NCBI RefSeq assembly: GCF_016903815.1
Contig: NZ_CP069974.1
DNA: 64,000 nt
Strand: one strand, 5' to 3'
Origin: Escherichia coli
Lineage (GTDB): Bacteria > Pseudomonadota > Gammaproteobacteria > Enterobacterales > Enterobacteriaceae
This document shows, piece by piece, positions 45,404 through 64,000 of this stretch. The notes beneath the pieces are model-generated. The model did not search any database. It was not told the origin of the DNA and saw only the letters and a list, made by a program, of their open reading frames with translations. Position 1 is the stretch's first letter, and each line of letters opens with the position of its first letter. A program made the translations under genes and the position numbers.

Positions 45404-45724
45404 CCTTTAATCATTGCTTTGCGTTTTTTTATTAAATCTTGCAATTTACTGCAAAGCAACAACAAAATCGCAAAGTCATCAAAAAACCGCAAAGTTGTTT
45501 AAAATAAGAGCAACACTACAAAAGGAGATAAGAAGAGCACATACCTCAGTCACTTATTATCACTAGCGCTCGCCGCAGCCGTGTAACCGAGCATAGCGAG
45601 CGAACTGGCGAGGAAGCAAAGAAGAACTGTTCTGTCAGATAGCTCTTACGCTCAGCGCAAGAAGAAATATCCACCGTGGGAAAAACTCCAGGTAGAGGTA
45701 CACACGCGGATAGCCAATTCAGAG

Positions 45725-46779
<1,055 letters not shown>

Positions 46780-46839
46780 CTAAATAAAAAAGAGTCAATA
46801 AGCAGGGATAACTTTGTGAAAAAACAGCTTCTTCTGAGG

Positions 46840-47045
46840 GCAATCTGTCACAGGGTTAAGGGCAATTTGTCACAGACAGGACTGTCATTTGAGGGTAATT
46901 TGTCACACTGAAAGGGCAATTTGTCACAACACCTTCTCTAGAACCAGCATGGATAAAGGCCTACAAGGCGCTCTAAAAAAGAAGATCTAAAAACTATAAA
47001 AAAAATAATTATAAAAATATCCCCGTGGATAAGTGGATAACCCCA
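46840..47045. other. ori2 (oriS) of RepFIA: four iterons, AT-rich stretch and two DnaA boxes
   Basis: Four direct repeats (GAGGGCAATCTGTCACAGG etc.) at 46840-46930, AT-rich region, GTGGATAAGTGGATAAC DnaA-box pair near 47023-47040. Confidence 0.8.
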
Positions 47046-47510
47046 AGGGAAGTTTTTTCAGGCATCGTGTGTAAGCAGAATATATAAGTGCTGTTCCCTG
47101 GTGCTTCCTCGCTCACTCGAGGGCTTCGCCCTGTCGCTCGACTGCGGCGAGCACTACTGGCTGTAAAAGGACAGACCACATCATGGTGCTGTGTTCATTA
47201 GGTTGTTCTGTCCATTGCTGACATAATCCGCTCCACTTCAACGTAACACCGCACGAAGATTTCTATTGTTCCTGAAGGCATATTCAAATCGTTTTCGTTA
47301 CCGCTTGCAGGCATCATGACAGAACACTACTTCCTATAAACGCTACACAGGCTCCTGAGATTAATAATGCGGATCTCTACGATAATGGGAGATTTTCCCG
47401 ACTGTTTCGTTCGCTTCTCAGTGGATAACAGCCAGCTTCTCTGTTTAACAGACAAAAACAGCATATCCACTCAGTTCCACATTTCCATATAAAGGCCAAG
47501 GCATTTATTC

Positions 47511-48317
47511 TCAGGATAATTGTTTCAGCATCGCAACCGCATCAGACTCCGGCATCGCAAACTGCACCCGGTGCCGGGCAGCCACATCCAGCGCAAAAAC
47601 CTTCGTGTAGACTTCCGTTGAACTGATGGACTTATGTCCCATCAGGCTTTGCAGAACTTTCAGCGGTATACCGGCATACAGCATGTGCATCGCATAGGAA
47701 TGGCGGAACGTATGTGGTGTGACCGGAACAGAGAACGTCACACCGTCAGCAGCAGCGGCGGCAACCGCCTCCCCAATCCAGGTCCTGACCGTTCTGTCCG
47801 TCACTTCCCAGATCCGCGCTTTCTCTGTCCTTCCTGTGCGACGGTTACGCCGCTCCATGGGTATTTTCAGTGTTGCCACCATCGTCTGCAGCTGGCTGAC
47901 GTACCAGGAGTCAGAGAGCGGAACCAGCCGGTGAGTCTGCTGACCGGCGGGCATTCTCCCCGCCGTCCTGGCAGCTTTTTCGGTCCGTTGTTTCAGGGTC
48001 GCAAGCTGCACAAACGGATACGGAGGCGCAAGCGAAAAATCCCCCCGCGTCAGCGCCAGTGCTTCATTAATGCGTGCTCCGGTGTTCCACAGTGTGGCCA
48101 GCAGCATCTTGCGGTGCAGATCCGGGACGTAATGGAGCAGGGCACTCACTTCCGGAGCCAGCAGATATTTTGGCAGTTCATCATGGACCATCGACATCTG
48201 GCGAAGTGCCAGAGCTGCCGGATAATCAATGGCAACAGGCAGCGATGCAGGCTGCCCGGCAGAATACACTGCCGGTACCATGACTGCAGACTGGCTGTGT
48301 ATAACGGAGCCTGACAT
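47511..48317 (-). CDS. resD: ResD (D protein) tyrosine site-specific recombinase/resolvase
   Basis: 268 aa with conserved R...HxxR...Y integrase motifs (HTFRHSYAMHM, Y near C-terminus); adjacent to ccdB. Confidence 0.85.
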   Translation of the reverse strand: MSGSVIHSQSAVMVPAVYSAGQPASLPVAIDYPAALALRQMSMVHDELPKYLLAPEVSALLHYVPDLHRKMLLATLWNTGARINEALALTRGDFSLAPPYPFVQLATLKQRTEKAARTAGRMPAGQQTHRLVPLSDSWYVSQLQTMVATLKIPMERRNRRTGRTEKARIWEVTDRTVRTWIGEAVAAAAADGVTFSVPVTPHTFRHSYAMHMLYAGIPLKVLQSLMGHKSISSTEVYTKVFALDVAARHRVQFAMPESDAVAMLKQLS

Positions 48318-48843
<526 letters not shown>

Positions 48844-49234
48844 AGCACACCTCTTTTTGACATACTTCGGGTATACATATCAGTATATATTCTTATGCCG
48901 CAAAAATCAGCGCGCAAATACGCATACTGCTATCTGGCTTTTAGTAAGCCTTATGTATTTTACCTTTCGTTATGTTAACCAATAAAAATTAAAATCTGAC
49001 TTATAAAAACAAAGCGTAATTACCGCATTCCCGTTTCGTATGGATCCGACTTTATTTGAATAAACGACTTTCCGGAAGTGTACAACGCTGAGAAAATCAT
49101 CATATCGCTGTTTTCCGCCCCTGCACGGCGCATCACAGGTCAGGGAAATAACACAACATATAGTGTCATCAGCAGCTGAATCCGGCACCACATGTTGTGC
49201 TTACAGGAAGTGGCGTTGTGTGGGGGGGAGAGGA

Positions 49235-49355
49235 AGATCCGTAACTGCCGGAAACCGGATCTCAGAAGAGAAAAAGAAGAGTTGTTGCAAGATAAGCACA
49301 AAAAATGGTGGTTTGTTGAGATATGGTAATTATTGCTCAGTGGGCAAAATTCAGA
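49235..49355 (+). repeat. island repeat R copy 1 (GATCCG-N13-CGGATC hairpin, purine-rich tract, mini-ORF)
   Basis: AGATCCGtaactgccggaaacCGGATCT then CAGAAGAGAAAAAGAAGAG...ATGGTGGTTTGTTGA...ATTATTGCT...GCAAAATT; homologous to the copies at 51190 and 57888. Confidence 0.6.
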
Positions 49356-49476
49356 ACAGAGTTAGCCTGAAATTGCAAAAAACAGGCCAGAAAAACTTTT
49401 TTCAGCTCATTTTCATCAACCGGCCTTAAAGGCTGCTTCGGATTTCCTAAATACAGTTTTACATAAGGAACATCGT

Positions 49477-49674
49477 ATGACTGTATTTCTCATGGCCGTT
49501 TTCTATGGCCTCTTAAAAACTGGCTCTCTCATTGCCCTACTTGTTGATGCCTATAAAGGCTGGACCTTGTTCTGGAAGAACTATGATCGACTCCCCCATA
49601 TCTACCGTTCGCAATGGCGATATCAGCGACGCTTCATTCTCAAAAGAATCTGGAAACGCATCAGAACCGGCTAA
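49477..49674 (+). CDS. small hydrophobic peptide (65 aa) with basic C-terminus
   Basis: MTVFLMAVFYGLLKTGSLIALLVDAYKGW... then RSQWRYQRRFILKRIWKRIRTG; downstream of repeat R1; coding status unverified. Confidence 0.3.
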   Translation: MTVFLMAVFYGLLKTGSLIALLVDAYKGWTLFWKNYDRLPHIYRSQWRYQRRFILKRIWKRIRTG

Positions 49675-49955
49675 GCCGGTTCTTCCAGCAGCATCCCCAA
49701 CCCGGCCAGCCAGCACAGACAGCACCAGGTGGTGAACACCATTCTGGTCTCGCCGGATTTCCACTTACGGATGGTGCGCTCGTCCACATCTAGCCGGTTG
49801 GCCAGCTGGATATCTGTGAGCGGGATCAGCGCCCGGACCACGCTGACTTCACTGGCTGAAGGTGCCATCCAGCTCTCGCCCGAGCACAGTGTTTCAGGGT
49901 TAAATTTCTCTAGTTCTATCAGCCCCTGAACCTGACGGGCATTTTCTGCCTTCAT
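49671..49955 (-). CDS. small HTH-containing protein with hydrophobic C-terminal tail
   Basis: LTDIQLANRLDVDERTIRKWKSGE HTH-like segment; C-terminal VFTTWCCLCWLAGLGMLL; 20 bp downstream of the DUF3800-like gene. Confidence 0.45.
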   Translation of the reverse strand: MKAENARQVQGLIELEKFNPETLCSGESWMAPSASEVSVVRALIPLTDIQLANRLDVDERTIRKWKSGETRMVFTTWCCLCWLAGLGMLLEEPA

Positions 49956-49974
49956 ATGCGGTTAACCTTTCTGA

Positions 49975-51108
49975 TCAGGATTGCGACACACTTTGTACAC
50001 GATGGGCAAGACGGCGCGTTTCTTCCACGGCCCTGAGTTCATTTGCTTTTTCTATCATTTCTGCGGTTGGTTCAGAAAGTTTTTCAAAAAACTCCTTAAA
50101 CCTCTTTGCAACTGACTGCAGAGAAACACTGTCAGTTCTCGCTGTTTTAAGATTGGTGTAGACGAGGCGGGAAAGGGGTTTGGTCAGTTCCTTCCGTTCC
50201 ATGTATCGTTTGAAGATCCAGAGATAAATATCAACCAGTTCCAGCCCGGCACTCATCGTTCCCGACTGGAAGACAAGCGGTTTTGCTGGCATGTTCTTCA
50301 TATCCATGACAGGCAAACCCGGCCCCAGTGCCCACGGCTGTTCGCGGATCTGGTAGTAAAACTCGTTCAACTCCCGCTGGGTGGTGTTGAACTGTGACTG
50401 CTGGTCAACAATGATATCTGCTTTCCGGTTCGGTGCCCCCAGACGAGAGCAGATCCCGTGCAAAACGGACTGAAAACCAATCATATTGGGCATGATCTGC
50501 AACTTTTCCTTATTGGTTTTGCAGTTGTACCCCAGCTCATCAAAGTTGACCATCGCCCAAGATAGGGCATCGGTAATGAGTTCAACTGAACGGGCATCAC
50601 CCAGAGAGTGAACGCGCTGAAGCAGCACTCCACAAACCTCACTGAATAATGAGCAAGAACGTTCATCATGAGCCTCAAGACGGGCACGCCACGCTTTTTC
50701 AGCCAGCTCATCATCAAACAGATTAGACAGATTCAGCAGCAGGGGATAGCGCAGAGGGGTCCAGTAGGCACTCCAGGGCACAACCGGATTCAGTCCCTGA
50801 TCAAACACCTGGTCGAAGAACGAAATAATGGCGTGATCGCGCTTAACCACCTGCCAGATATCAAACCGTATCCGGTGATTTTTCTGCAGGACCAGCAGCG
50901 TATCCACAACTTCTGAAAGGCGGTGCACGCCCAGTTCCGCAGCGTGCAGGCGCTCCACGCCCAGAGTTTTGCGTAATGCGGCAAGATCCGCTTCAGCAAC
51001 CTTATCTAGGTCAGCCTCTGAGGACAGTACTCCGTAGGAGAGGATTGGCTGGGTTTTGTCAAAAAGGTTTCGGCCAGTCTGGCCTGTTTCATCCACATAA
51101 AAGTGCAT
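49975..51108 (-). CDS. DUF3800-like protein (377 aa)
   Basis: N-terminus MHFYVDETGQTG resembles the y-DESG signature I associate with DUF3800; family assignment by recall. Confidence 0.45.
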   Translation of the reverse strand: MHFYVDETGQTGRNLFDKTQPILSYGVLSSEADLDKVAEADLAALRKTLGVERLHAAELGVHRLSEVVDTLLVLQKNHRIRFDIWQVVKRDHAIISFFDQVFDQGLNPVVPWSAYWTPLRYPLLLNLSNLFDDELAEKAWRARLEAHDERSCSLFSEVCGVLLQRVHSLGDARSVELITDALSWAMVNFDELGYNCKTNKEKLQIMPNMIGFQSVLHGICSRLGAPNRKADIIVDQQSQFNTTQRELNEFYYQIREQPWALGPGLPVMDMKNMPAKPLVFQSGTMSAGLELVDIYLWIFKRYMERKELTKPLSRLVYTNLKTARTDSVSLQSVAKRFKEFFEKLSEPTAEMIEKANELRAVEETRRLAHRVQSVSQS

Positions 51109-51189
51109 TCAGATATCCTTTTCAAGGCAGGAGGAAAAGAAACGGCATAATTCAAATCAATGTAAAACCTTCCTGTTGCCGGCTGCAAG

Positions 51190-51310
51190 TGATCCTCTTA
51201 AATGAGTTTTCGGATCTAAGGAAGAGAGAAGAGGGATTATTGTATGAATGGCACAAAAAGCGACGGATTGTTGCGGTGAATAGATTATTGCTTAGGAAGC
51301 AAAATTTATA
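51190..51310 (+). repeat. island repeat R copy 2
   Basis: GATCCtcttaaatgagttttcGGATC hairpin, AAGGAAGAGAGAAGAGGG tract, mini-ORF ATGAATGGCACAAAAAGCGACGGATTGTTGCGGTGA, ATTATTGCTTAGGAAGCAAAATTT. Confidence 0.6.
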
Positions 51311-51329
51311 GTAATTGATAACTCTAATG

Positions 51330-51360
51330 CAATTAAACAGCGACCCCATCAGGGGTCACC
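51330..51360 (-). terminator. putative terminator hairpin downstream of the 1039-aa gene
   Basis: GACCCC-ATCA-GGGGTC stem-loop at 51342-51357, followed on the minus strand by a T-rich stretch. Confidence 0.4.
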
Positions 51361-51370
51361 GTAATTTTGA

Positions 51371-54300
51371 TCAGCGATGTTCAAACCGCGCCACTGGAGT
51401 ATCAGTGATTTCCATCTCTATTTCCCAGAGCGTTTTCATCACACCTTCAAGTGGATCGTCGCTGCTGCGGTAGAAGGTATTGAAAAGGGTTCCATCCGGA
51501 TACCTGAACAGCCTGAGTTCACCAAAGGATTCAGCACTGACCATAAGCGAAAACTCCTGTTCGGAATTGAGGACAAGGTAAATAAGACAGTTATTGATCC
51601 TGAAGGGCAGAGAGCGGCTACCCCTGGCCGATACATCAACATGTATGCTAAACGCGTCATGCCTTTCCGGCTGATAGACCAGTTCCCTCAGTTCCTCGCT
51701 GAAGCGGGAACCATAGATCACCAGAATGTAGTTATTCTGATCAGCGGACCGTTGCGCGACTTCCATTAACAGCGTTTCGAGGTTATTGACCTCAATCGTT
51801 AATTTAGCCTGTGACTGCCACAGTACATAATGCAGTCTGCGGAGAATATTTCTGTTCACTTCTGATACCGAAGGGAAATCTCCGTAGTCAGTCTGATTAA
51901 GCTCTCTGGCAACATACTCTTTGGAAACACCAACAGGAATATATATCGCCAGCCAGTTGCGATCACATTCTGAATTTTGAGTAAACGTGAAGTATTTAAG
52001 CAGAACATCTTCAGACAATGCCCCAGGAAGTTCATTTGTAAGACGAGCATCAGTGTTTCTCAGTCGAGCCTGGTCTACTTCAGCAGCAACGATATCTGCC
52101 GTTTTACTACGACTGAATACATCTATGTATTTATCCAGAACATCATTAAAGAACACCACATTCGTTGCATAATCCGCTTCTGAAATGATATAACCTTCAT
52201 AGGGAACTGAAGGGTCTCGTTTCAGTCGTTTAAGAATAGAAATTATTCTGTCTTTACTGGAATAGGAAAACACCCCTCCAGCCAGGGCTTCATTAACACG
52301 CTGTGTAACCTGCTCCGCAGGCCTTGCGAGCTTTATAGCCAGCAAGGCAAACGCCCCGTAGAGACTCCCTAAATCTTCATATTCCCCTGTATACATACGC
52401 CCGGGAATGTAAGGCCTTTCATTATATGAGTTCATAACCTCAATGGTTTCTGATAACCCGCTGTACCAGCTTGTATTCGTATGCAGATTGCAGTGCTCAA
52501 TTCTCAGTATCATGTCAATGATATCGACAGAACGTCTGAATGCAGGCGTCAGCGTGTCATGTGTATCTCTATCTTCATATAATTCAGACATAATGAGATG
52601 ATTCACAAGATCGGCTAAGTCTATATTTTTTTGCGATTCAAAATGAGCAATAAGATACCCTGCCATTAACAACCGCAAATCGGATAAGGCATTTGCAAAC
52701 ATAATGGACAAAGCGGCATCTTTTTTATACTTGCTGCCCCTGAGTAACATATTCCACTGCGGTTCTGTCTCCTTCAGGGACAGATAATCCGGAGTCAGGA
52801 AGAAACTGTGCCAGCGGTACTCTTCCTCCCAGTAACGTGTAAACCGGCTCTGATTAAACCAGAGGCAGAGAACGTCGTGAGCATATCGCACGGAAGAGGC
52901 ATTATCGGCAACCACTGACGGAATAAGAAGCCTGGCGGTATTATGCAGATGATACATCAGGCGGCCAGTAGAATCTTCACTCCCGGGTTTGCCAGTGATC
53001 GTGGTCATACTCCAGCCTTCCCACAGTCCGATATACCCGCGGATAAGGGCCTGGTGAGTCAGCTCCTGGCTGGCCGAGAGGGGGCCCCCCAGTCCCGCTT
53101 TCCACTCGTTTAACACATGCCACACCCTGAAAAGCGAGAGTAAAAACTGTCTGAAATCGGTAAAACACGTGCTCTGTGTTTTTCTGTACACACGCAATGG
53201 AATGAGCATCGATTCACGGAAATATTCGCCTGAATATTCCGTTGATTTTACGGATTCACGAAAAAACTTTCTCAATTCATAATGGAATGAATCGCTGAAA
53301 GTATGGCTAAAACCTGATTCTTTTACTTCATCCAGATAATTTTTATCGACCTCGTAATTGTAACTTCTTTTGATAGAGGTATAGGTATCTGTTAATCGTT
53401 CAATCCCTGTTCTGAAGACGCTAATATTTTTATCGTTAAGCGCATCGTAAGCCTCACCAAAGAAATCAAAAGTAATATCATCCAGATCCCTTTTGTTCTC
53501 AGGGCGCCCTGTTACAATACAACGACGCAATAACCACCGCCACAATCCTGAAACAGGCTTGACATTTCTCGATGACAATAAAGTCAGTTCACCAGAACGA
53601 ACACCAAAGGAGGGCAGAATGATAATTTCCGCATCCTGCCCATCTACCGCCTCTAGCCTTCTCAGTAGGAATAAAAAAGGCCTTATATAAATATCAGTAA
53701 CAACATCACCTTTACTGATATTAGATTTAACATGAAGCATATCGTCTTTCTCAGAAATTGAGTAAGGCAGTATTTTAATATTACCGAGGTAATTTTGACC
53801 TACATGACCCCCCGGGTAACGCAGCCACGCCTGAATATATGCTTTTTGAATGTAGTCATCCACTATCTGAGATAAAAAAAACTTATTCATTAGTCGATCG
53901 CGTTTGCTCTCATCCAGGACATTCAGACTGGAGACGAAGAACCAGATAGACAGAATAATATTGAAAAGCATCCACACAAAAGCTGTTACGGCAAAAGAAG
54001 TATTAAGATATCCGTCACCTATAGATAACGTCATACCGCCCAGCACGACAAATGCAGCCAGTGAAAGACCACTCAGGCCCGCAAACATATATCCGGAATG
54101 AAGTTGATACGCGGACTGAATATGGATCCTTGCTGATTTCTTTTGAAATAAAACACTTATAAGCCCCACAACCAGCGGAAATACAATACCGATTATAGTC
54201 AACTGGCTACCCAGTAAATTAGACATCCAATCTGAAAGCTTGGTAATGCCCTTAAAATGCTGCACAGCGAAAGGTAGCAATACAGGGCGAAAATATTCGA

Positions 54301-54490
54301 CCACGCCAACAGCCCCGAAGGCTGCGGACCATAGAACCAGCATAGCCCGGACGTAATGGGTGGAGCAGGAAACAAGTATTCTCTCCACCGGGTTCCAGCG
54401 AAGTTTTTTGTAATCCCGGTTCGACTTCAGGCTCCGTCGGAGTTCAGCTCTCACCTGCCATGAGACACTTTTCAGAAGTTTTCCAAACAT
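51371..54490 (-). CDS. large membrane-anchored protein of unknown function (1039 aa, four N-terminal TM segments)
   Basis: Uninterrupted 3.1-kb ORF in an AT-rich island; four hydrophobic segments within the first ~200 aa, ~840-aa soluble C-terminal region with no recognisable catalytic motif. Confidence 0.7.
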   Translation of the reverse strand: MFGKLLKSVSWQVRAELRRSLKSNRDYKKLRWNPVERILVSCSTHYVRAMLVLWSAAFGAVGVVEYFRPVLLPFAVQHFKGITKLSDWMSNLLGSQLTIIGIVFPLVVGLISVLFQKKSARIHIQSAYQLHSGYMFAGLSGLSLAAFVVLGGMTLSIGDGYLNTSFAVTAFVWMLFNIILSIWFFVSSLNVLDESKRDRLMNKFFLSQIVDDYIQKAYIQAWLRYPGGHVGQNYLGNIKILPYSISEKDDMLHVKSNISKGDVVTDIYIRPFLFLLRRLEAVDGQDAEIIILPSFGVRSGELTLLSSRNVKPVSGLWRWLLRRCIVTGRPENKRDLDDITFDFFGEAYDALNDKNISVFRTGIERLTDTYTSIKRSYNYEVDKNYLDEVKESGFSHTFSDSFHYELRKFFRESVKSTEYSGEYFRESMLIPLRVYRKTQSTCFTDFRQFLLSLFRVWHVLNEWKAGLGGPLSASQELTHQALIRGYIGLWEGWSMTTITGKPGSEDSTGRLMYHLHNTARLLIPSVVADNASSVRYAHDVLCLWFNQSRFTRYWEEEYRWHSFFLTPDYLSLKETEPQWNMLLRGSKYKKDAALSIMFANALSDLRLLMAGYLIAHFESQKNIDLADLVNHLIMSELYEDRDTHDTLTPAFRRSVDIIDMILRIEHCNLHTNTSWYSGLSETIEVMNSYNERPYIPGRMYTGEYEDLGSLYGAFALLAIKLARPAEQVTQRVNEALAGGVFSYSSKDRIISILKRLKRDPSVPYEGYIISEADYATNVVFFNDVLDKYIDVFSRSKTADIVAAEVDQARLRNTDARLTNELPGALSEDVLLKYFTFTQNSECDRNWLAIYIPVGVSKEYVARELNQTDYGDFPSVSEVNRNILRRLHYVLWQSQAKLTIEVNNLETLLMEVAQRSADQNNYILVIYGSRFSEELRELVYQPERHDAFSIHVDVSARGSRSLPFRINNCLIYLVLNSEQEFSLMVSAESFGELRLFRYPDGTLFNTFYRSSDDPLEGVMKTLWEIEMEITDTPVARFEHR

Positions 54491-54796
54491 AGATATCCTG
54501 CGTATTACATAAGAAATTTTATGAATAATAAGCGGTAGGAACCTTTTTTTCTCTGGAAAATGTCACCCGATACCCTTCATACAGGCTTTGTCATCCTAAA
54601 ATCCGGTTTAACCTTTTTTCGGATCTCCGATAAAAAAGAAAGAAATAGAGATATGCATAAACATATGCCTGGCATCTACATATGCTACCGCTATACATAT
54701 GCCACACATCTGCCTATACTAAACATATGCACACACCCGGTGCTTTGAATATTCCGGATATGTTTCACATATCCATATGCTCGGGAGAGAAAGAAC

Positions 54797-55027
54797 ATGA
54801 GAACCGTATCGATATTTAAAAATGGCAACAACCGCGCCATCCGTCTGCCTCGTGATCTGGATTTTGAGGGGGTGAGCGAGCTCGAGATCGTCCGGGAAGG
54901 GGACAGCATCATCCTGCGCCCCGTCCGGCCAACCTGGGGATCATTCCTAGAGTACGAAAAAGCCGATCCAGATTTTATGGCGGAGCGCGAGGATGTTGTC
55001 AGCGACGAAGGGCGATTTAACCTGTGA
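54797..55027 (+). CDS. vapB: VapB/MvpA antitoxin (AbrB/SpoVT fold)
   Basis: 76 aa MRTVSIFKNGNNRAIRLPRDLDFEGVSELEIVREGDSIILRPV... matches VapB/MvpA-type antitoxins. Confidence 0.85.
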   Translation: MRTVSIFKNGNNRAIRLPRDLDFEGVSELEIVREGDSIILRPVRPTWGSFLEYEKADPDFMAEREDVVSDEGRFNL

Positions 55028-55440
55028 ACAAGACTTATATGCTTGATACCTGTATCTGCTCGTTCATCATGCGTGAACAGCCAGAAGCCGTCCTGAAGCG
55101 TCTGGAGCAGGCGGTGCTACGCGGCCACCGTATAGTGGTCTCGGCCATCACCTACTCTGAAATGCGCTTCGGGGCTACCGGCCCAAAGGCCTCACCACGT
55201 CACGTCCAACTGGTCGATGAATTCTGCGCCCGCCTCGATGCCATCCTGCCCTGGGATCGCGCCGCAGTAGACGCCACCACGAAGATTAAAGTGGCACTGC
55301 GGCTGGCCGGGACGCCGATCGGCCCGAACGACACGGCGATTGCCGGGCACGCCATCGCCGCCGGGGCGATACTGGTAACGAATAATACAAGAGAATTTGA
55401 GCGAGTGCCTGACCTGGTGCTGGAAGACTGGGTGAAGTAA
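55024..55440 (+). CDS. vapC: VapC/MvpT PIN-domain toxin (start GTG 55024 or ATG 55039)
   Basis: MLDTCICSFIMRE...VVSAITYSEMRFG...LVTNNTREFERVPDLVLEDW with PIN acidic residues; overlaps vapB stop. Confidence 0.85.
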   Translation: MNKTYMLDTCICSFIMREQPEAVLKRLEQAVLRGHRIVVSAITYSEMRFGATGPKASPRHVQLVDEFCARLDAILPWDRAAVDATTKIKVALRLAGTPIGPNDTAIAGHAIAAGAILVTNNTREFERVPDLVLEDWVK

Positions 55441-55601
55441 GACACTCTTTTCAAAGTCAGGAGATAAGGGCACCAAGAAACAGCCCGTATACGGGCTGTT
55501 TTAACAGATATCTACAGTAAGCGGTCCTAAACTGTAGGGTATCTTCGAAGATCAGACTATCAGGGAGCTAAAGCCTATCTTCCGGCGGCAAAAACAGTGG
55601 C

Positions 55602-57740
55602 TCAAGCGATACGGGCAACCGAGCTCTGGTTTGCTGCCGGTGGCAGGGCGATGAGCTTGTCACATTCCATAATCACGTACTCCGGGATGAGATCGAATCT
55701 GGACGGATCTAGTTGACAGATGAACTCATTTTCAATGTGGTACGTTTCGTTAACGAATTTTCGTATTACCGGATGGTCCTGATCCAGTTCCAGTAAACGG
55801 AATACCTGCAGTTTTTCATAGCCGTTACGACAGCGACGGTACAGGTTTTTTATTTCATCTGGGCTGCTGACGAGAGCCTGAAGTCGCGGGTAATCAAAAC
55901 TGTCCACATACTCCCGGATATCCCGCAAGGCCTGCTGAATTTTCTCAGGAGCCATTTTGGGATAGCCCGAGCCCGCAGCGGCAGGCTCGCGATAATCCAG
56001 CGGGGCGACGCGTCGATGGAATAGATTGGATAGAAGCTGATAAGCATCACCACGTTCGTCAACGATTTCAAAGTAGCGACGAAGATAGATGAGCTTAATG
56101 ATCTCCTCACAGTCTGCTGACGCGGTGATGGATTTGCAGATCTGCATGAATGTCATGATATCGCCGTCGTTAACAGGTAATTCTTCTATGACTCCAGCAG
56201 ACAGGCGCAGGCAGGAGGCGGTCACCTGATTACTGAACAACCTTCTGACTGACTTCAGCGTGTCAATCACAGGCTCCACGTCATGCGTCAGCATAAGTAC
56301 AGTCCGGTTCTTCAGGCATTCACCACTTGCACGTCTGAACAGCATTTCAAGAATGGCAAACTTCTTGTTTTTATCAAAAGAAGATATGGGATCATCAAGG
56401 ATAATCAGTCCCGGGTTTTTTGACAGGCATTCATACATGAATAACACAATCGCAAAGGCGTTCCGTTCTCCATAGCTGAGATGCTGGCTACCGCCGCTGA
56501 CGTACCCGTCAAAATCTATGTGTCGTAGCCTGAGTTTTCTCTGCTCTCCCTCGCCGGCTATATCCACCCTGTATTTATAGCCTGCATAAGTGAGGAAATT
56601 ATTGATGTTTGTTTTGTGCTGTGCGATCAGCCGGATCATGCTGTCCCGGTGCCGGTTAATTTTTCCCTGCAGCGGTCCGGCAAGGTTTATCAGGTCCATA
56701 AGGGCCGCGTTCAGTCTGTCGGTGATCCCCTGCATGAGTTCGGATTGCAGATCAGGGAAGAACTGCAGGTCAATCAACCTGGCAGTGAGCACCTCCCGAA
56801 CGTTCTGCTGTTCCTGCAGGCTGAAAACATTCAGGCCTCTCAGCGCAGTGAGTTTCTCTGTCAGCGTATCGGTCTGGCGTTTCAACGCCACTAGGTACTC
56901 GATATGTTCGGCTTCCGGACCGTTCTGAAGCATAGTAATGGCCAGAAGGCGTTCTCTGGCGCTCTCCGTCAGGTAATTACCGAGGTTTTCCACCAGTCTG
57001 ATGATAGCGGTCAGGTTTTTAATGGTGGATTTATCGTATTCCTCTCTGACTTGGCGAATTTGTGCTTCCTTTCCCGTGATATCACCGGTACAGAACGGAC
57101 AGCAGCCATCCGAAAGGGGCGAAAACTCGAGTCCCTTTGTCTGCCAGTCAATCCATTCCACGCGGCGTTCACTGCGGATGTAGGGTTGATAGTTCTCAAG
57201 ACCAGCCGGAATGTGGTGTATTTTATTTCCGCCTGACAGACCTCTCATGCCGGTTGAAGAACGTGAAATCCCGGAACTGGTTGATTTGAAAGCATTACTG
57301 AGTTCCTGTAGATGGTCTATCAGAGAGTTCAGCTCAGTGTGATCCGTGAAAACAGCCCGGATCTTTTGCGTCATTTCTTCTATTTCACGCTCTCTTTCCG
57401 CATGGGCTTGATTGCGGATAAGAATATTAAAGCTGTCACTGATGAGCTCGTCCGGTTGGAACGTAAACTGACTGACGTACTCCTCGTTGAAGCACATCAC
57501 GTCCCCAATCCCGTCAGCACCGATGACAATGGGCCCGGTGCTATCGGGGTTTTCTCCGCGCAGCCGGAAGGGCATCAGTGCCTGTAGTCCCTGAATGTCG
57601 TCCCGCGCCGCACAGCTTATGGCCCGTGACAGCGTACTTTTTCCAGTACCATTTGGCGCAAACTTAATGTTCAGTTTATCGGCAGTGAGGGTGATATGTG
57701 CTCGTACGATGTTATTGCAGTGGCGTATTTCAATGTCCAT
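55602..57740 (-). CDS. RloC/Rad50-like ABC ATPase with CxxC hook insert (candidate anticodon nuclease)
   Basis: Walker A APNGTGKST at the N-terminus, long coiled-coil-like insert with CCPFCTGD (CxxC), signature-like LSYGER, Walker B LIILDDP, C-terminal LRRYFEI...H region reminiscent of PrrC/RloC. Confidence 0.45.
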   Translation of the reverse strand: MDIEIRHCNNIVRAHITLTADKLNIKFAPNGTGKSTLSRAISCAARDDIQGLQALMPFRLRGENPDSTGPIVIGADGIGDVMCFNEEYVSQFTFQPDELISDSFNILIRNQAHAEREREIEEMTQKIRAVFTDHTELNSLIDHLQELSNAFKSTSSGISRSSTGMRGLSGGNKIHHIPAGLENYQPYIRSERRVEWIDWQTKGLEFSPLSDGCCPFCTGDITGKEAQIRQVREEYDKSTIKNLTAIIRLVENLGNYLTESARERLLAITMLQNGPEAEHIEYLVALKRQTDTLTEKLTALRGLNVFSLQEQQNVREVLTARLIDLQFFPDLQSELMQGITDRLNAALMDLINLAGPLQGKINRHRDSMIRLIAQHKTNINNFLTYAGYKYRVDIAGEGEQRKLRLRHIDFDGYVSGGSQHLSYGERNAFAIVLFMYECLSKNPGLIILDDPISSFDKNKKFAILEMLFRRASGECLKNRTVLMLTHDVEPVIDTLKSVRRLFSNQVTASCLRLSAGVIEELPVNDGDIMTFMQICKSITASADCEEIIKLIYLRRYFEIVDERGDAYQLLSNLFHRRVAPLDYREPAAAGSGYPKMAPEKIQQALRDIREYVDSFDYPRLQALVSSPDEIKNLYRRCRNGYEKLQVFRLLELDQDHPVIRKFVNETYHIENEFICQLDPSRFDLIPEYVIMECDKLIALPPAANQSSVARIA

Positions 57741-57887
57741 TTATCTGTCCTTTGCCAGTTATTCCGGGGGGATTCATATCCTGCCGCAAAATGTGCCCGC
57801 ATGCTGTGATGCAGATACATAATACATTTCGTTTATACCATTGCTTACACCTCTCCGAGATGTTCATATCAGAAACAAAGATTAGGT

Positions 57888-58020
57888 CGATCCGACTTTT
57901 ACTTTTTTCGGATCTCTGGAGAGGGGAAGAAGGATTTGTGCTGATGATGCAATACTAATGATATATTTTGAACTTAATTGCATTATTGCTTATCTGGCAT
58001 TAATAACTGAAATACTTTGC
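57888..58020 (+). repeat. island repeat R copy 3
   Basis: GATCCGActtttacttttttCGGATC hairpin, CTGGAGAGGGGAAGAAGG tract, mini-ORF ATGATGCAATACTAA, ATTATTGCTTATCTGGCA...GCATAATTA. Confidence 0.6.
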
Positions 58021-58204
58021 ATAATTATCAATGAAAGAACGAGGCTCATATTTCCCATGTAAATTATATGCCCTTGCAGAGAGCGAGACGGTAGTGAACT
58101 TGCGGCACTAATAATAAACTGTACCGACTCTTCCCGGGCACTGGAATGTTCAGATGTACGACAGAGCCCCGCGCCTTTTGCAATAAATAATTAAAGGACT
58201 GAAC

Positions 58205-59200
58205 ATGGCGACCACAGTAATAGCTGCCTTTAACGAATTTATGAAAGATACCGTGAATCTCAAAAAGGCAGATACCGATGACGCGCGTGCAAGTCGCGAC
58301 TGGCTTATCGGTAAGATGAATGATTTTGAGAAGGACGATAAATTTCCGGTGAGTTTTCCAGCGATCCATATTGCCTTTGGCTCCTTTGCCAGAAGAACCA
58401 AAATCCGTCCGCTTGATGATATCGATCTGATGTTTGGCTTAACCGGGCAAGGTGCCACCTATACCATCCTGAGTGACCGGATAACTGTAACCTCCTCCGG
58501 AGAGGGGTCACGTCTGCACAGTTACCGCCATTCCGGAGCTGACACCGTCTGCTCCGTCAGAATTCTGAATGCCTTTAAAAACCGCCTGCAGGACATTGCC
58601 CAGTACGCCCAGGCTGATATCAGGCGTAACCAGGAAGCTGTCACGCTGAAACTGGTCAGCAAGGACTGGAATTTTGACATCGTCCCCTGCTTTATTACCA
58701 GCGAAGATGCCTTTGGACGGACTTACTACCTGATCCCCGATGGCAACGGCCACTGGAAGTTTACCGACCCCCGTAAAGACAGGGACAGAGTCACTACTAT
58801 CAATGTGCAGAATAACGGCAATGTGCTCAATGTCATCAGAGCAGTCAAATACTGGCAGCGGCGACCGACGATGCCATCCATGAGTTCCTACCTGCTGGAA
58901 ACGCTGATTCTGGACTATTACGCTGGCAGGACATCCTGCTCATCGTTTGTTGACATGGAGCTGGAAGCGCTTTTCCGCCACCTTGGTCAATCCGTGCGGT
59001 ACTCTGTCAACGATCCCAAAGGCATACAGGGTGATATCAACTCACTTTCAGCCGAGGCACGTAAGGCGATATCGGACAGATGTTATCTCGATGCGCAAAA
59101 GGTATCGGAGGCGAGATGGTTTGAAAATAATAAAGAGTATGAAAAATCCATCAATAAATGGCGCGATGTGTTCGGGCCATTCTTTCCTGTTTACGGGTGA
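58205..59200 (+). CDS. CD-NTase/SMODS-like nucleotidyltransferase (CBASS-type cyclase candidate)
   Basis: GS-x11-DID nucleotidyltransferase motif FGSFARRTKIRPLDDIDLMF and downstream third Asp KDWNFDIVPCF; 331 aa. Confidence 0.6.
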   Translation: MATTVIAAFNEFMKDTVNLKKADTDDARASRDWLIGKMNDFEKDDKFPVSFPAIHIAFGSFARRTKIRPLDDIDLMFGLTGQGATYTILSDRITVTSSGEGSRLHSYRHSGADTVCSVRILNAFKNRLQDIAQYAQADIRRNQEAVTLKLVSKDWNFDIVPCFITSEDAFGRTYYLIPDGNGHWKFTDPRKDRDRVTTINVQNNGNVLNVIRAVKYWQRRPTMPSMSSYLLETLILDYYAGRTSCSSFVDMELEALFRHLGQSVRYSVNDPKGIQGDINSLSAEARKAISDRCYLDAQKVSEARWFENNKEYEKSINKWRDVFGPFFPVYG

Positions 59201-59203
59201 ATC

Positions 59204-60136
59204 ATGAATGCCATTTACACAAACCAGTCGACCAGAGAAAACATGGATTTACTGTATGCGCAGGCCCGTGTCTACGACAGGGTAAAAAACTGGAACAGAC
59301 TGAATTTTCTCTTCAGCATCATCGTACCGCTCCTGCTTTCTTTCGTTACCGTATACAACCGGAGCCGGGAATTTGTCGATTCAGAGTTGTTGTCTTCGCT
59401 GTTGGGGTTATATGGACTCCTGGTGCTTACCTTTAACATTGTTATCAGTGGACACATCTCGGCTCTGCGCAGGAAGGCAGCCTCAATCCAGGAAATGTAC
59501 GACTGCCGGGTACTTGGCATCCGGCGTAATGAACTGAAGGTGGAGGAGATCCCACGGGATGACATCATCCGGGAAGCTGCATATTTTAGAGACAGCCCGG
59601 AAAAAGCACGAAAGCGATTTGGCGAAGAGGGGTGGTACGTCAGTAAGGTGTATGACGCGCCGCAGGCCGTAATGGCGCTCCTTTGCCACGGAAAAAATCT
59701 CGGCTGGGACAAATCGCTCAGGGAGGTTCTGCACGTATTTTATCTTTCCGCTTTTATTGTCTCGCCTGTCGCGATGCTTGTTTACGGCATCGTCATGAAA
59801 TCCGGGCTGAATGAGATCCTCTTCTATGTGGTGTTCACACTGCCGGTCATCCGCTATTTCTTGCTTCAGTTTCTGGATAATCGCAGCAGTATGAAAAGAA
59901 GCGAGAAGCTGAAAAAGTACGTTGAGAAGGAATTATCCGGCATAAGGGTGTCCGGAAGGGCAGAAGAAGAGCAACTGGCTTATACGCTCCGGAATATCCA
60001 AGATGAGATGTTTACCTACCGGGCCTCATGTCCGCCCGTACCCAACGGTATTCAGCTGATAATGAAGCCCAAAAATGAACGAATTTATGTTGATTACTTT
60101 GAAACAAATCTGAAGGAGCTGCACCTTCAGAAGTAA
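59204..60136 (+). CDS. 4-TM effector-like membrane protein (2TM-loop-2TM) coupled to the nucleotidyltransferase
   Basis: Starts 4 bp after the NTase stop; hydrophobic segments around residues 30-50, 60-85, 198-222 and 228-248. Confidence 0.55.
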   Translation: MNAIYTNQSTRENMDLLYAQARVYDRVKNWNRLNFLFSIIVPLLLSFVTVYNRSREFVDSELLSSLLGLYGLLVLTFNIVISGHISALRRKAASIQEMYDCRVLGIRRNELKVEEIPRDDIIREAAYFRDSPEKARKRFGEEGWYVSKVYDAPQAVMALLCHGKNLGWDKSLREVLHVFYLSAFIVSPVAMLVYGIVMKSGLNEILFYVVFTLPVIRYFLLQFLDNRSSMKRSEKLKKYVEKELSGIRVSGRAEEEQLAYTLRNIQDEMFTYRASCPPVPNGIQLIMKPKNERIYVDYFETNLKELHLQK

Positions 60137-60272
60137 TCCCTCCTTAGCTCCGGTGTAGGATTTACGTATGCCGGAGCACATCCGATAAACAATTCTTGGT
60201 TGCCTGAGTGTCAGCGTAAACCCATAGTCACCTTCGCCTCAGACGGTTAGTAACACAGGTAATGACTCCAAC

Positions 60273-60776
60273 TTACTGATAGTGTTTTATGTTCAGATAA
60301 TGCCCGATGACTTTGTCATGCAGCTCCACCGATTTTGAGAACGACAGCGACTTCCGTCCCAGCCGTGCCAGGTGCTGCCTCAGATTCAGGTTATGCCGCT
60401 CAATTCGCTGAGTGTAACGCTTGCTGATTACGTGCAGCTTTCCTTTCAGGCGGGATTCATACAGCGGCCAGCCATCCGTCATCCATATCACCACGTCAAA
60501 GGGTGACAGCAGGCTCATAAGACGCCCCAGCGTCGCCATAGTGCGTTCACCGAATACGTGCGCAACAACCGTCTTCCGGAGCCTGTCATACGCGTAAAAC
60601 AGCCAGCGCTGGCGCGATTTAGCCCCGACGTATCCCCACTGTTCGTCCATTTCCGCGCAGACGATGACGTCACTGCCCGGCTGTATGCGCGAGGTTACCG
60701 ACTGCAGCCTGAGTTTTTTAAGTGACGTAAAATCGTGTTGAGGCCAACGCCCATAATGCGGGCTGTTGCCCGGCAT
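60273..60776 (-). CDS. insB: IS1 InsB
   Basis: 167 aa matching IS1 InsB. Confidence 0.9.
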
Positions 60777-60970
60777 CCAACGCCATTCATGGCCATATCA
60801 ATGATTTTCTGGTGCGTACCGGGTTGAGAAGCGGTGTAAGTGAACTGCAGTTGCCATGTTTTACGGCAGTGAGAGCAGAGATAGCGCTGATGTCCGGCAG
60901 TGCTTTTGCCGTTACGCACCACCCCGTCAGTAGCTGAACAGGAGGGACAGCTGATAGAAACAGAAGCCAC
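60695..60970 (-). CDS. insA: IS1 InsA
   Basis: 91 aa [43 protein letters not shown]... matches IS1 InsA. Confidence 0.9.
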
Positions 60971-61183
60971 AGGAGCACCTCAAAAACACCATCATACACT
61001 AAATCAGTAAGTTGGCAGCATCACCGGCATTCAAAATCATTATGGCCGCGATCTATTTCTGGCTGTTCTCTATCACTTTTGGCGGCATCGTCGCTCATGG
61101 GTAAGGGGAGTATATTAGCCATTTGGAACCCCACGGTCTCTTGCGGGTTTAATTAAGAACCCGCAAGAAAAACACGAATTGGG

Positions 61184-64000
61184 CTATATTTTTCCGCCTA
61201 CGCCTTTAAACTTCTCAATAAACGAGACGATTTTCTGGAAAACTGCCTGTTTTTTCGTTTTATATTGCGGGTTTAACGGACTAAGTTTTGGTAATGTCTC
61301 GTTTAATTCTGTGCCATTTTCGGTGGCGTATTCGCGTTTTAAAGACGTGCGAATATAGCGTTTCGCCGCCTCTTCATTGAGATTTTCTTCTTTAATCAAC
61401 GCTTCTGCTTCACGTAGCTGTTCGTGTTGAGCAAAGGTAAAGAACGCGTCAATGATGCTGGCTTTGTCTGGTAAATCATCCAGGTTCGTTTGCTGAATAA
61501 AATCGACCACCAGGCCCTCTTTCGCCCGGTTCCCCAGGCTTGAACGAATTAAGCGTTTGACCTCTTCGATCATTTCGCCCTTGCCTTTATTTTGTCTGTT
61601 ATGTTCGAAAATCAGTCCAAGGATATAATCCAGGTTTATTTCCTGAGACTTCAGCAAATCGACCTCAAAAACCACGTCATCCCAGTCAGTGGTTGATTTC
61701 TCTTTTTTCTCAGCTTCTTTCTCACGGCGCTGCCAGTCGCGAATATCGTTATAGGCAGAACGATAATCCTGAATCTTGCGATCAGCAGGGAGACGAATTG
61801 TTTGCAATTCAGCGAGCTTTTCATCATCCACATAATGTTCTGCTTTGAATTTTTCTACTGCAACAGGATCGCTAAGATCGATTTGTTGCAGGGCTTTCAG
61901 CGTGGCAAATTCATCATAGTTTTGCAGGATGTTCTCGGTACGCAGGTATTCACCAAACAGTTTTACGAAGTCTTTCTTCTCTTTTTCACTTTCAATACTG
62001 GCAGGGTCAGGGAACCGTTGTTCCAGTTCTGCAACTACTGCCATAAAGCCGCGCTTAGCTTCACCAGTAGCAGCATCAGTAAAGCCTTCCATATACTCTG
62101 CATAACTCTTTTCTAACACTACATTTTTGGTGTTTTTGTCACCAAACAGCGTTATGGCATCAATAGTTGAGCGTTCCAGATCCCGGAAAGTGACGATATT
62201 ACCGAAGGTTTTAGTGGCGTCATAAATGCGGTTGGTGCGGGAAAATGCCTGCATCAGGCCGTGAAAACGTAAGTTTTTATCGACGAATAGCGTGTTCAAT
62301 GTTGGAGCATCGAAGCCGGTTAAGAACATCCCCACGACAATTAGCAGATCGATATCCTGATTTTTAACCCGCTGGGCTAAATCACGATAGTAGTTCTGAA
62401 AACCGTTACTGTCGGTGCTAAAGTTAGTTTTAAAATGGCTGTTATATTCACGAATTGCAGCGTCCAGAAACTCTTTAGCACTGCTGTCCATTGCGCTGGT
62501 ATCAAAAGTTTCATCGGAAATCTCACCAATGGCATTTTGTTCTTCATTGGCGGCAAAGGAGAAGATTGTCGCAATACGCAGCGGTTTATAGGTAGCCGAT
62601 TTATTAGCGGCTTCTTCTTGTAACCGTTTAAACGTCGCATAATAGGCTTTCGCGGCATCCACGCTGCTCACTGCCAACATAGCATTAAAACCTTTTGAGC
62701 CAGGGAAGGTACGGTGAGTTTTCTGGCGGAAATTATTCAGAATATATTGCGTAATTTCCTGTATACGCATGGGATGAAGAAACGCCTGCTGATTTTCAGC
62801 CGCACTCAGTTTTTTCTCGTCGGTTTCTGTCTCTAAAGACTTAAACTGTGGCCGCACATCGTTGTAGTCCACCTTGAATTTAAGCACTTTTTCATCTCGA
62901 ATCGCATCGGTAATAACATATGAATGCAATTCACGACCAAATACGCTGGCGGTTGTTTCTGAGCCTAAGGCGTTTTCCGGGAAAATAGGGGTACCGGTAA
63001 AACCAAACTGATAATAGCGTTTGAATTTCTTCTTCAGGTTTTTCTGTGCTTCTCCAAACTGGCTGCGGTGGCATTCATCAAATATAAACACCACTTGCTG
63101 ATTGTATACAGGCAGGTCGCTTTCTGCTTTCATCAGGTTATTGAGTTTCTGAATAGTGGTGACGATAATTTTGTTATCATCCTTATCCAGATTTCGTTTA
63201 AGACCTGCGGTATTTTCCGATCCATTGACACTGTCTGGCGAAAAACGCTGATATTCCTTCATGGTCTGGTAATCGAGGTCTTTCCTGTCGACCACAAAGA
63301 AGACTTTATCAATAAAGTCCAGTTCTGTTGCCAGACGCGCGGCTTTAAAGCTGGTCAGGGTTTTACCAGAACCGGTAGTGTGCCAGATAAAGCCACCACT
63401 TTCGGGGGTAGACCAGTTTTTCGCTTTATAGGAGCTGTTGATTTTCCATAAGATACGCTCAGTGGCGGCAATCTGGTACGGTCGCATCACCAGTAGCGTC
63501 TGGCTACTGTCAAAAACGCTGTAGTTCACCAGAACATTCAGCAGAGTATGTTTCTGGAAAAAGGTAGCGGTAAAGTCTTTGAGGTCTTTAATCAGCGTGT
63601 TGTCTGATTTTGCCCAATTCATGGTGAAGTCAAAACTGTTTTTATCGCGCTTTGTCGTGTTGGCAAAATAATGGGTATCGGTGCCGTTAGAAATGACAAA
63701 CAGTTGCAGATACTTAAACAGGGAATTTTCGCTGTTAAAACTCTCTTTACTGTAACGATGTATCTGGTTGAAAGCCTCACGAATCGCCACCCCGCGTTTT
63801 TTTAGTTCGATTTGCACCAGCGGTAAACCATTAACCAGGATCGTGACGTCATAACGGTTAGCATGAGAACCCGTCTGTTCAAACTGCTGGATAATCTGCA
63901 CCTTATTGCGCATGAGATTCTTTTTATCTATCAAATAGATGTTCTCAAGACGCTCGTCATCAAAAATAAAGTCGCAAATATAGTCGATATGGATTTTACG
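61184..64000 (-). CDS. hsdR: type I restriction enzyme R subunit HsdR, C-terminal ~916 aa (5' end outside window)
   Basis: Helicase motifs [22 protein letters not shown] (DEAH-like), QAFSRTNR; ORF continues past the window end. Confidence 0.85.

Follow-up and report, generated by a model that had tools for sequence, protein, structure and literature searches.

What might explain why an intact IS1 element, standing between a CBASS effector gene and a type I hsdR gene in E. coli plasmid DNA, has no target duplication around it? The window, by which we mean the whole stretch of 64,000 nucleotides that was analysed, is part of an IncF plasmid. A simple IS1 insertion produces a direct target duplication of 9 bp (occasionally 8 bp). 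We give a probability of roughly 0.8 to the reading that this IS1 is the fusion scar of two replicons, a P1-like phage-plasmid with a type IC hsd system and an IncF plasmid, as the DNA on its two sides suggests. The features that matter here are, from left to right:

58205..59200, + strand: SMODS-type CBASS cyclase, 331 aa (Pfam SMODS; PADLOC cyclase PDLC00802, E 4e-152)
59204..60136, + strand: S-4TM CBASS effector, 310 aa, complete (Pfam S_4TM, E 7e-47; PADLOC PDLC00717, E 1e-165)
60137..60257: F-plasmid spacer 3' of the S-4TM gene, ending in AGTAACACA; the new joint in the preferred reading
60258..61025, - strand: IS1A, 768 bp, intact; the identical sequence is IS1A with programmed frameshift in RefSeq annotation
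60258-60280: IS1 IRR, GGTAATGACTCCAACTTACTGAT (inverted-repeat match)
60776-60273, - strand: insB' (NCBIfam transpos_IS1, E 8e-42)
60970-60695, - strand: insA (NCBIfam transpos_IS1, E 2e-25)
60713-60719, - strand: A6C frameshift motif, TTAAAAAAC (read in the sequence)
61003-61025, - strand: IS1 IRL, GGTGATGCTGCCAACTTACTGAT (inverted-repeat match)
61026..61108, + strand: phage P1 backbone strip, 83 bp (P1 NC_005856 at about 84399-84482, pap-pmgT interval, 98-99% identity)
61109..61183: spacer specific to the hsd cassette, common to the hsd-bearing pXD35003 and not in the hsd-less pCREC-629_2
61184..64000, - strand: type IC (EcoR124-family) hsdR, codons 101-1038 and stop, by profile matches; runs off the window

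Members of the IS1 family are about 768 bp long with imperfect terminal inverted repeats of about 23 bp, and their transposase reading frames, insA and insB', are joined by a -1 frameshift at A6C. Both terminal inverted repeats were found in the present element, the only IS1 copy in the 64-kb window, and an inverted-repeat search of the whole window gave IRR and IRL as its only two matches, against none expected by chance. Its position between the effector gene and the 3' end of hsdR is as the first-pass annotation had it, save that the start given there, 60257, was one base early. The element lies 121 bp from the S-4TM stop codon (60136) and 158 bp from the hsdR stop codon (61184-61186). Because the window contains the whole S-4TM gene, and the near-identical plasmid pEcIMT16316 a full-length hsdR reading frame of 1038 codons, IS1 is a structural seam and no functional part of either defence system, and the predicted coding sequence of neither is broken by it. 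A promoter scan returned two matches against 1.6 expected by chance, one at the position known for the IRL promoter and the other an outward hybrid -35/-10 combination, so that no promoter can be claimed.

The 9 bp to the left of IS1 are AGTAACACA (60249-60257) and the 9 bp to the right are GGCATTCAA (61026-61034). The lack of a 9-bp duplication reported earlier is borne out by these flanks, and none was found around this element at other lengths or nearby offsets either. Neither 9-mer stands beside another IS1 in the window, and the other copies of GGCATTCAA (13579 and 20642) adjoin no IS. The absent duplication is a sign of rearrangement after insertion, not a failure of IS1 membership. The missing second copy of GGCATTCAA is found on the left side of an IS1 of the same orientation in two P1-like plasmids, L018 and L019, which read AACACGGCATTCAA and then, at the IS1 IRR end, GGTAATGACTCC, while the window reads GCATCACC and then GGCATTCAAAATC; the IS-free P1-like plasmid L003 has one GGCATTCAA copy. 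As these sequences indicate, GGCATTCAA at 61026-61034 is the kept right-hand copy of the original IS1 target duplication. In L018 the IRL end of IS1 adjoins hsdM at approximately its sixth codon, through an adjacent deletion of hsdRSM, and L019 has the same layout by annotation.

The DNA to the right of the element belongs to the P1-like side. The 83-bp strip is the 3' part of a small open reading frame cut by IS1; from 61026 on, the right flank matches the IS-free P1-like pXD35003 base for base, and it also aligns with P1, phi456 and vB_EcoM-673R5. Chromosomal type IC loci match the window only from about the hsdR stop codon onwards. The DNA is collinear with P1 on both sides of the hsd cassette, the far side being read from pEcIMT16316, in which phd-doc-pdcA-pdcB' is 97.9% identical to P1. 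The spacer 3' of hsdR also contains a 10-bp inverted repeat (61140-61149 and 61158-61167), which was rejected as a canonical intrinsic terminator: the terminator scan made no call and the T-run is on the wrong side.

The DNA to the left belongs to the F plasmid. The IS-free pYJ4-a and S30 plasmid B align with the window to about 60250-60252 and then run into a pifC-like gene, a continuation that is not in the window save for a DUF3800 homologue at another place. At its last 5-7 bases (TAACACA) the left flank aligns poorly with the IS-free F relatives, which have GCATCCAGCTTTCACAG there, and AGTAACACA is presumed to be the F-side target copy. Two genes on this side form a type I CBASS, in which the SMODS/CD-NTase cyclase is directly followed by the S-4TM effector, without Cap2/Cap3 or HORMA/TRIP13; the neighbours of the pair are an AAA_13 ATPase gene and IS1.

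Between the window end and its stop codon the hsdR frame runs uninterrupted through 938 codons, and the product aligns to residues 101-1038 of EcoR124I HsdR (PDB 2W00) with about 98% identity, which places about 100 N-terminal codons beyond the window. It scores 723 bits against TIGR00348 (cut-off 285) and has the Pfam domains HSDR_N, ResIII/SWI2_SNF2, T1R_D3-like and EcoR124_C, that is, the nuclease, SF2 motor and helical domains together with the EcoR124-type C-terminal domain. What follows base 64000 of the source replicon is predicted from near-identical plasmids, of which pEcIMT16316, 99.995% identical to the window over 18.8 kb (window 45199-64000), is the only one read as far as hsdS and hsdM. 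Its gene order is hsdR (1038 aa), hsdS, hsdM, phd-doc, pdcA, a truncated pdcB and an rve fragment; hsdM (647 bits against TIGR00497) and hsdS are intact, and HsdS has the EcoR124-type conserved regions and TAEL repeats. The expectation that the island continues with hsdM and hsdS is thus upheld outside the window, in this plasmid. Nor does hsdR appear to be a lone remnant: every sampled relative that keeps hsdR beside IS1 has it at full length, as an annotated CDS of 3117 nt. Methylation at a specific sequence and restriction that depends on ATP are the predicted functions of the system.

How might the two kinds of DNA have come together? The history would begin with a simple insertion of IS1A into a P1-like phage-plasmid carrying type IC hsdRSM between pap and phd-doc, about 160 bp past the hsdR stop codon, with duplication of GGCATTCAA; it is the split of that duplication between the window and the P1-like plasmids that documents this step. 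IS1 would then have fused the P1-like plasmid with an IncF plasmid about 120 bp 3' of the CBASS S-4TM gene. Replicative transposition into AGTAACACA would have made a cointegrate; alternatively, the element may have recombined with an IS1 that the site already carried. Replicative transposition and homologous recombination between two IS1 copies are indistinguishable, as both give the same product, F-left-AGTAACACA-IS1-GGCATTCAA-hsdR. The missing parts suggest that the second junction and the F-side pifC-like neighbourhood were subsequently deleted and that hardly any of P1 was kept past nt 279 of pdcB. The remnant would be a 7.5-kb P1 fragment (hsdRSM, phd-doc, pdcA and the 5' end of pdcB), bounded on its far side by the remnant of an IS3-superfamily (rve) transposase. 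The reciprocal junction, in which the IS1 IRL end is joined to the pifC-like side, occurs in 0 of 20,395 E. coli records, and an intact ancestor with P1-left-IS1-GGCATTCAA-hsdR on one molecule was found neither in those 20,395 records nor in PLSDB; the ancestor search gave only the hsd-deleted L018 and L019 and plasmids whose IS1 lies deeper by about 290-376 bp, in what seems from annotation to be the 3' end of hsdR. Because ancestor and reciprocal junction were not found, the cointegrate stage is one that we infer and do not observe. The broader proposal of the first-pass annotation, that IS activity assembled or rearranged the island, agrees with flanks from different replicon types, IncF and P1-like, and with the presence of the missing GGCATTCAA copy on P1-like plasmids.

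The exact CBASS-IS1-hsdR joint is present in 304 RefSeq records (303 of 5,426 complete E. coli genomes) and is now vertically inherited in a widespread IncF lineage. The left joint between S-4TM and IS1 is found, with window-type alleles, in about 510 records against 304 with the full joint. Among ten sampled records with the window-type left flank and IS1, nine carry hsdR and one, L015, has the left joint as in the window and a different right flank.

These last counts are what could be said for an order of events that we think improbable, in which IS1 was first resident in the F plasmid 3' of S-4TM and attacked a P1-like plasmid, or deleted outward into an adjacent P1 fragment, so that the F-side joint is original and the hsdR-side joint new. 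The left joint is indeed the more frequent, and at least one plasmid (L015) has it with another right flank; however, later deletions from the IRL end, as in L018 and by annotation L019, account for the excess. In addition, no record among the 20,395 has IS1 beside the pifC-like side. A simple P1-side insertion predicts a second GGCATTCAA across an IS1 of the same orientation, which is what the two P1-like plasmids have, but if an F-borne IS1 had made the hsdR-side joint these copies would be a coincidence. A somewhat poorer prospect is that the hsd-phd-doc block moved from a P1-like plasmid to the F plasmid as an IS1-flanked composite transposon. In phage phi456, pdcB, which lies at the far side of the block, does contain a second IS1, and in pEcIMT16316 an inverted IS1B is found 13.7 kb to the right. 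However, the phi456 element cuts pdcB at nt 468, another site, while the P1 fragment of pEcIMT16316 stops at nt 279 of pdcB, where it meets an rve-type transposase fragment and no IS1; the outer flanks of the IS1B (CGCGCTCC and GGAGCCGCA) match neither AGTAACACA nor GGCATTCAA, and no IncF relative was seen with an IS1 at the pdcB end and AGTAACACA outside it. An inversion via the same IS1B was considered and rejected, the flanks being unrelated.

Two further explanations fare worse. An ordinary IS1 insertion into an existing CBASS-hsdR intergenic region, with its duplication erased by point mutations, has nothing in its favour except that IS1 stands between the two genes, and is effectively refuted. 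The two 9-mers have no common register, the flanks come from different backbones and IS-free relatives diverge right at the IS1 ends; with IS1 intact and the flanks 97-100% conserved, selective decay of just 9 bp is implausible. An assembly artefact, with two contigs falsely joined through a collapsed IS1 repeat, is the least credible of all: IS1 occurs in many copies and is well known for causing misjoins, but the same joint recurs in 304 complete RefSeq records that were assembled independently and come from many countries and hosts. The fusion of a P1-like phage-plasmid with an IncF plasmid is the reading we prefer. One extension of it is doubtful, if less so than any of these rivals: the S-4TM-IS1 joint may be a fixed anchor whose IRL end repeatedly captures or deletes neighbouring cargo. 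The variants that can be cited for this are hsdRSM-phd-doc from P1-like phage-plasmids (about 300 records), an Abi-like fragment (NZ_CP101004.1) and hsd deletions (p1_KH_005). If it were true, IS1 beside type IC hsd would be a recurrent shuttle, not a one-off scar, carrying modules for defence and addiction between phage-plasmids and conjugative F plasmids that reside in the same cell.

The 712-aa ATPase gene near the CBASS pair had been called RloC-like and taken as a sign of a restriction-modification-linked island, and this part of the earlier proposal is not supported. PrrC and RloC combine an ABC-type ATPase head with a C-terminal anticodon-nuclease domain, and PrrC is embedded in a type IC hsd locus. 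The gene matches Pfam AAA_13 with 65 bits, and its best PADLOC match is the candidate family PDC-S06 (E 3e-286); the match to the PADLOC PrrC model is marginal (E 3e-4, 17.8 bits) and lies in the ATPase part. It is on the F-derived side of the seam and absent from some plasmids that have the CBASS-IS1-hsdR joint. On this comparison it appears to be without ancestral link to hsd, and the hsd block would have been brought in, together with phd-doc, on a piece of phage DNA and not within a prr-like locus.

As a discovery the arrangement is of small value. It is ordinary and common and has been annotated before, and its components, like the P1-flank phenomenon, have been familiar since the 1990s. 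What is offered is a base-by-base account of how an EcoR124-family restriction-modification system and the P1 phd-doc addiction module came to stand beside CBASS in an IncF lineage, a concrete case of genes passing from a phage-plasmid into a conjugative one and of defence cargo both made and destroyed by IS1. It also offers useful background to plasmid epidemiology and to those who wish to type the methylation specificity of such plasmids.

The closest known systems are EcoR124I and EcoR124II of the IncFIV plasmids R124 and R124/3, which are likewise plasmid-borne. HsdR is 1038 aa in both cases, with about 98% identity over the 938 window residues and an EcoR124_C domain, and HsdS of pEcIMT16316 has the N-terminal, central (TAEL repeats) and C-terminal conserved regions, with three TAEL repeats as in EcoR124II. 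The differences are about 18 substitutions in HsdR and two HsdS target-recognition domains that are both unmatched in EcoR124, so that the recognition sequence is expected to differ. In the annotation of the P1 record (NC_005856), 84399-84482 is given 98% identity to the R124/3 DNA that lies 3' of hsdR. This homology starts at the very nucleotide, P1 84399, at which IS1 is joined in the window, which suggests that R124/3 may have the same IS1-hsdR joint. Nothing relevant came from a search of the literature for R124 and IS1 in combination. The same P1 record marks both EcoDXXI flanks as P1-like, and P1-derived flanks of type IC hsd loci are credited to Tyndall et al. 1997 (listed as ref. 364 in PMC12707154). 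As in EcoDXXI, P1 pap-pmgT DNA lies directly 3' of hsdR and the phd-doc side upstream of hsdM; unlike here, where IS1 cuts at 84399/84400, the downstream P1 homology of EcoDXXI is 136 bp longer (from P1 84263).

The P1-like (Punavirus) phage-plasmids pXD35003, phi456 and vB_EcoM-673R5 share the order pap, small ORF, hsdR, hsdS, hsdM, phd, doc, pdcA, pdcB, in which the hsd cassette replaces the pmgT-humD segment of P1. P1-like hsd phage-plasmids have 96-98% nucleotide identity to the fragment of the window lineage, but they are complete, whereas here a 7.5-kb fragment resides in an IncF plasmid and IS1 truncates the small ORF. P1 itself has a resident IS1, and PMC9025707 names its locus. Cointegration of plasmids through IS1 is cited in PMC9603915, and one IS1 with flanks from two replicons and no target duplication is what one cointegrate junction looks like, although the cointegrate and the second IS1 copy are no longer present here; the adjacent deletions from the same IS1 end in L018 are classical IS1 behaviour. 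Finally, the locus is reminiscent of EcoprrI-PrrC and of RloC in having a type IC hsd and an AAA_13-family ATPase gene within 8 kb, but here the ATPase gene lies outside hsd, with CBASS and IS1 between them and in DNA of other ancestry.

What might explain why an IS1 copy without a target duplication separates a CBASS operon from a type I restriction locus? The window holds a single 768-bp IS1, which is IS1A, a known entity; its terminal repeats at 60258-60280 and 61003-61025 account for both matches in the window, where chance predicts none. The stop codons of the S-4TM effector gene and of the minus-strand hsdR lie 121 bp to its left and 158 bp to its right, respectively, so the first-pass annotation had placed the element correctly between the effector gene and the hsdR 3' end, although the start given there, 60257, was off by one base. 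The element contains the frameshift site TTAAAAAAC and two ORFs matching the NCBIfam transpos_IS1 model:

60970-60695, minus strand, InsA
60776-60273, minus strand, InsB'

IS1 cuts no coding sequence of the CBASS or restriction systems, and the sole ORF that it interrupts is a small one lying between pap and pmgT in P1. The bordering 9-mers, AGTAACACA on the left and GGCATTCAA on the right, differ, and therefore there is no target duplication, as had been seen from the sequence alone. A promoter-like hybrid faces out of IS1 (61012-61040, plus strand; -35 TTGGCA in the IRL, -10 AATCAT in the P1 flank) and runs antisense to hsdR; the regional count of such hits is not above chance.

Comparison with related plasmids, a check suggested in the first-pass annotation, indicates that the two flanks differ in ancestry, the left being IncF and the right P1-like. 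Two IncF plasmids that lack the IS, pYJ4-a and S30 plasmid B, match the spacer after the S-4TM gene until ~60250-60252, beyond which they run on into a pifC-like regulator and more genes; this continuation is absent from the window, except for a DUF3800 homologue at another place. Because the alignment to the IS-free F relatives is not clean over the terminal 5-7 bases of the left flank, the F-side 9-mer at the left joint is only presumed. From 61026 onward the right flank matches base for base the P1-like phage-plasmids and phages pXD35003, phi456 and vB_EcoM-673R5, in which the gene order is pap, small ORF, hsdR, hsdS, hsdM, phd, doc. The 83 bp at 61026-61108 are common to P1 itself and to hsd-less P1-like plasmids, and the match of chromosomal type IC loci to this flank starts only at the hsdR stop codon. 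In the P1 GenBank record, 84399-84482 is already noted as having 98% identity to "plasmid R124/3 sequence downstream of hsdR gene", and the EcoDXXI hsd locus is marked as P1-like on either side. The R124/3 homology in P1 starts at the exact nucleotide where the window IS1 ends, which suggests that R124/3 carries an identical IS1-hsdR joint. The paper behind the P1-like flanks of type IC hsd loci is that of Tyndall et al. (1997, Mol Microbiol 23:729), reference 364 of PMC12707154.

Which joint came first was addressed with two chimeric queries, one per candidate ancestral half-joint, searched against 20,395 records. The IRL end of IS1 joined to the F-side pifC-like continuation was found in none of the 20,395, and P1 sequence left of the break, including GGCATTCAA, joined to the IRR end was matched in a single piece in two P1-like plasmids, p1_KH_005 and pSW071618_contig_3. 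Their joint reads ...ATGAACACGGCATTCAA|GGTAATGACTCC, and the window counterpart ...GCATCACC|GGCATTCAAAATC; the IS-free pXD35003 has one copy of GGCATTCAA, and the copy missing from the window is on P1-like plasmids. Taken together, the half-joints of the window and of these two plasmids rebuild an ordinary insertion of IS1, 9-bp duplication included, into a P1-like plasmid with hsd, which makes the IS1-hsdR joint the original and the S-4TM-IS1 joint the new one. In p1_KH_005 the IRL end adjoins approximately codon 6 of hsdM, an IS1-adjacent deletion of the entire hsd cassette, which shows activity of this IS1 end; pSW071618_contig_3 is annotated with the same layout, phd coming directly after IS1. 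In several P1-like or cointegrate plasmids, such as NZ_CP044294.1 and NZ_CP073989.1, a same-orientation IS1 lies ~290-376 bp further in, apparently (by annotation only) inside the hsdR 3' end. This part of hsdR in P1-like plasmids may be one into which IS1 inserts repeatedly.

In the simplest history, IS1 first inserted beside hsdR in a P1-like phage-plasmid, as shown by the split duplication. We infer that IS1 then mediated fusion with an IncF plasmid just downstream of the CBASS operon, and that later losses removed the second junction, almost the whole of P1, and the F plasmid's pifC-like side. The fusion could have proceeded by replicative transposition to a cointegrate, classical IS1 behaviour, or by recombination with an IS1 already at the F site; the product would be identical. 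Searches of the E. coli genomes and PLSDB yielded no cointegrate and no intact ancestor. IS1-mediated cointegration is cited in PMC9603915, and an IS1 locus of P1 itself is named in PMC9025707.

The first-pass annotation had also named a CBASS-like pair, an RloC-like gene and a composite R-M-linked island. The call of a CBASS, of type I, stands up well: the cyclase and S-4TM effector strongly match their respective Pfam and PADLOC models. The neighbouring ORFs are:

55602-57740, minus strand, the 'RloC-like' gene, an AAA_13 ATPase with its best match to the PADLOC candidate family PDC-S06
51371-54490, minus strand, a 1039-aa ORF between the DUF3800 gene and vapBC, without a match in Pfam, NCBIfam or PADLOC

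The PADLOC PrrC model reaches only E 3e-4 against the ATPase. Given the PDC-S06 match, its place in the F-derived DNA left of the seam, and the absence of its block from plasmids that keep the CBASS-IS1-hsdR joint, a prr-like, R-M-linked module is unsupported, and the closeness of the ATPase gene to hsd is a by-product of the fusion. Two plasmids lack the whole block of DUF3800, 1039-aa ORF, vapBC and ATPase, and in them ccdAB directly adjoins the CBASS pair. This makes the block variable accessory DNA, possibly defence-related. Elsewhere, the F-plasmid leading region (16805-37110) has one group II intron in three near-identical copies and a different intron RT:

17987-19654, 29772-31439 and 35443-37110, plus strand, 555-aa RT/maturase ORFs
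26015-27916, minus strand, 633-aa group II intron RT

By ORF length and annotation, the presumed-collinear part of pEcIMT16316 appears to have only the 633-aa type (ltrA).

Plasmid pEcIMT16316 (NZ_CP023816.1) is 99.995% identical to window 45199-64000, the lone difference being one base of a G-run in the 49219-49229 region, and is an IncF replicon with RepFIA (repE, sopAB, ccdAB), RepFIB and an F-type tra region. Across hundreds of plasmids, a 4.8-kb stretch including IS1 is 100% identical, and the exact S-4TM-IS1-hsdR arrangement occurs in 304 records (303 of 5,426 complete E. coli genomes). Among ten relatives with the window-type left flank and IS1, nine keep the joint; in the tenth, NZ_CP101004.1, the left joint is identical and the right flank is different, a second rearrangement at that IS1 end. 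There (5054-6072) the IRL end adjoins a truncated 'abortive infection family' ORF, with flank GTACAAATG, in place of hsdR.

The hsdR frame stays open for 938 codons as far as base 64000 on the minus strand. That the island would continue with hsdM and hsdS is borne out in pEcIMT16316, which has full-length hsdR (1038 aa), hsdS (427 aa), hsdM (518 aa), phd, doc, pdcA and pdcB as far as nt 279, then an rve-domain transposase fragment and RepFIB; the hsdM and hsdR products score far above curated NCBIfam cut-offs. At 23338-23751 of that plasmid, pdcB, cut at nt 279, adjoins a C-terminal fragment of the rve-domain (IS3-superfamily) transposase, which points to a second IS-mediated truncation where the P1 fragment ends on the side away from IS1.

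The earlier view of assembly by IS activity was right, and our analysis adds the direction of events at the IS1 seam and the P1-like donor type. All components are known (IS1A, a type I CBASS, phd-doc, and an hsd locus of the EcoR124 family flanked by P1-derived DNA), the arrangement is already annotated in hundreds of RefSeq plasmids, and such P1 flanks have been in print since 1997. The restriction system is assigned to type IC, EcoR124 family, because the in-window HsdR aligns over its whole length to EcoR124I HsdR (PDB 2W00; residues 101-1038), differing at ~18 of 938 residues, and has the EcoR124_C domain. Beyond the window lies the specificity gene:

pEcIMT16316 19223-20506, hsdS, with EcoR124-type conserved regions

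Its product shares the N-terminal, central and C-terminal conserved segments of EcoR124 and has three TAEL repeats, like EcoR124II, implying an N7 spacer. Neither target-recognition domain matches those of EcoR124, and because of this the recognition and methylation specificity is probably different from that of EcoR124.
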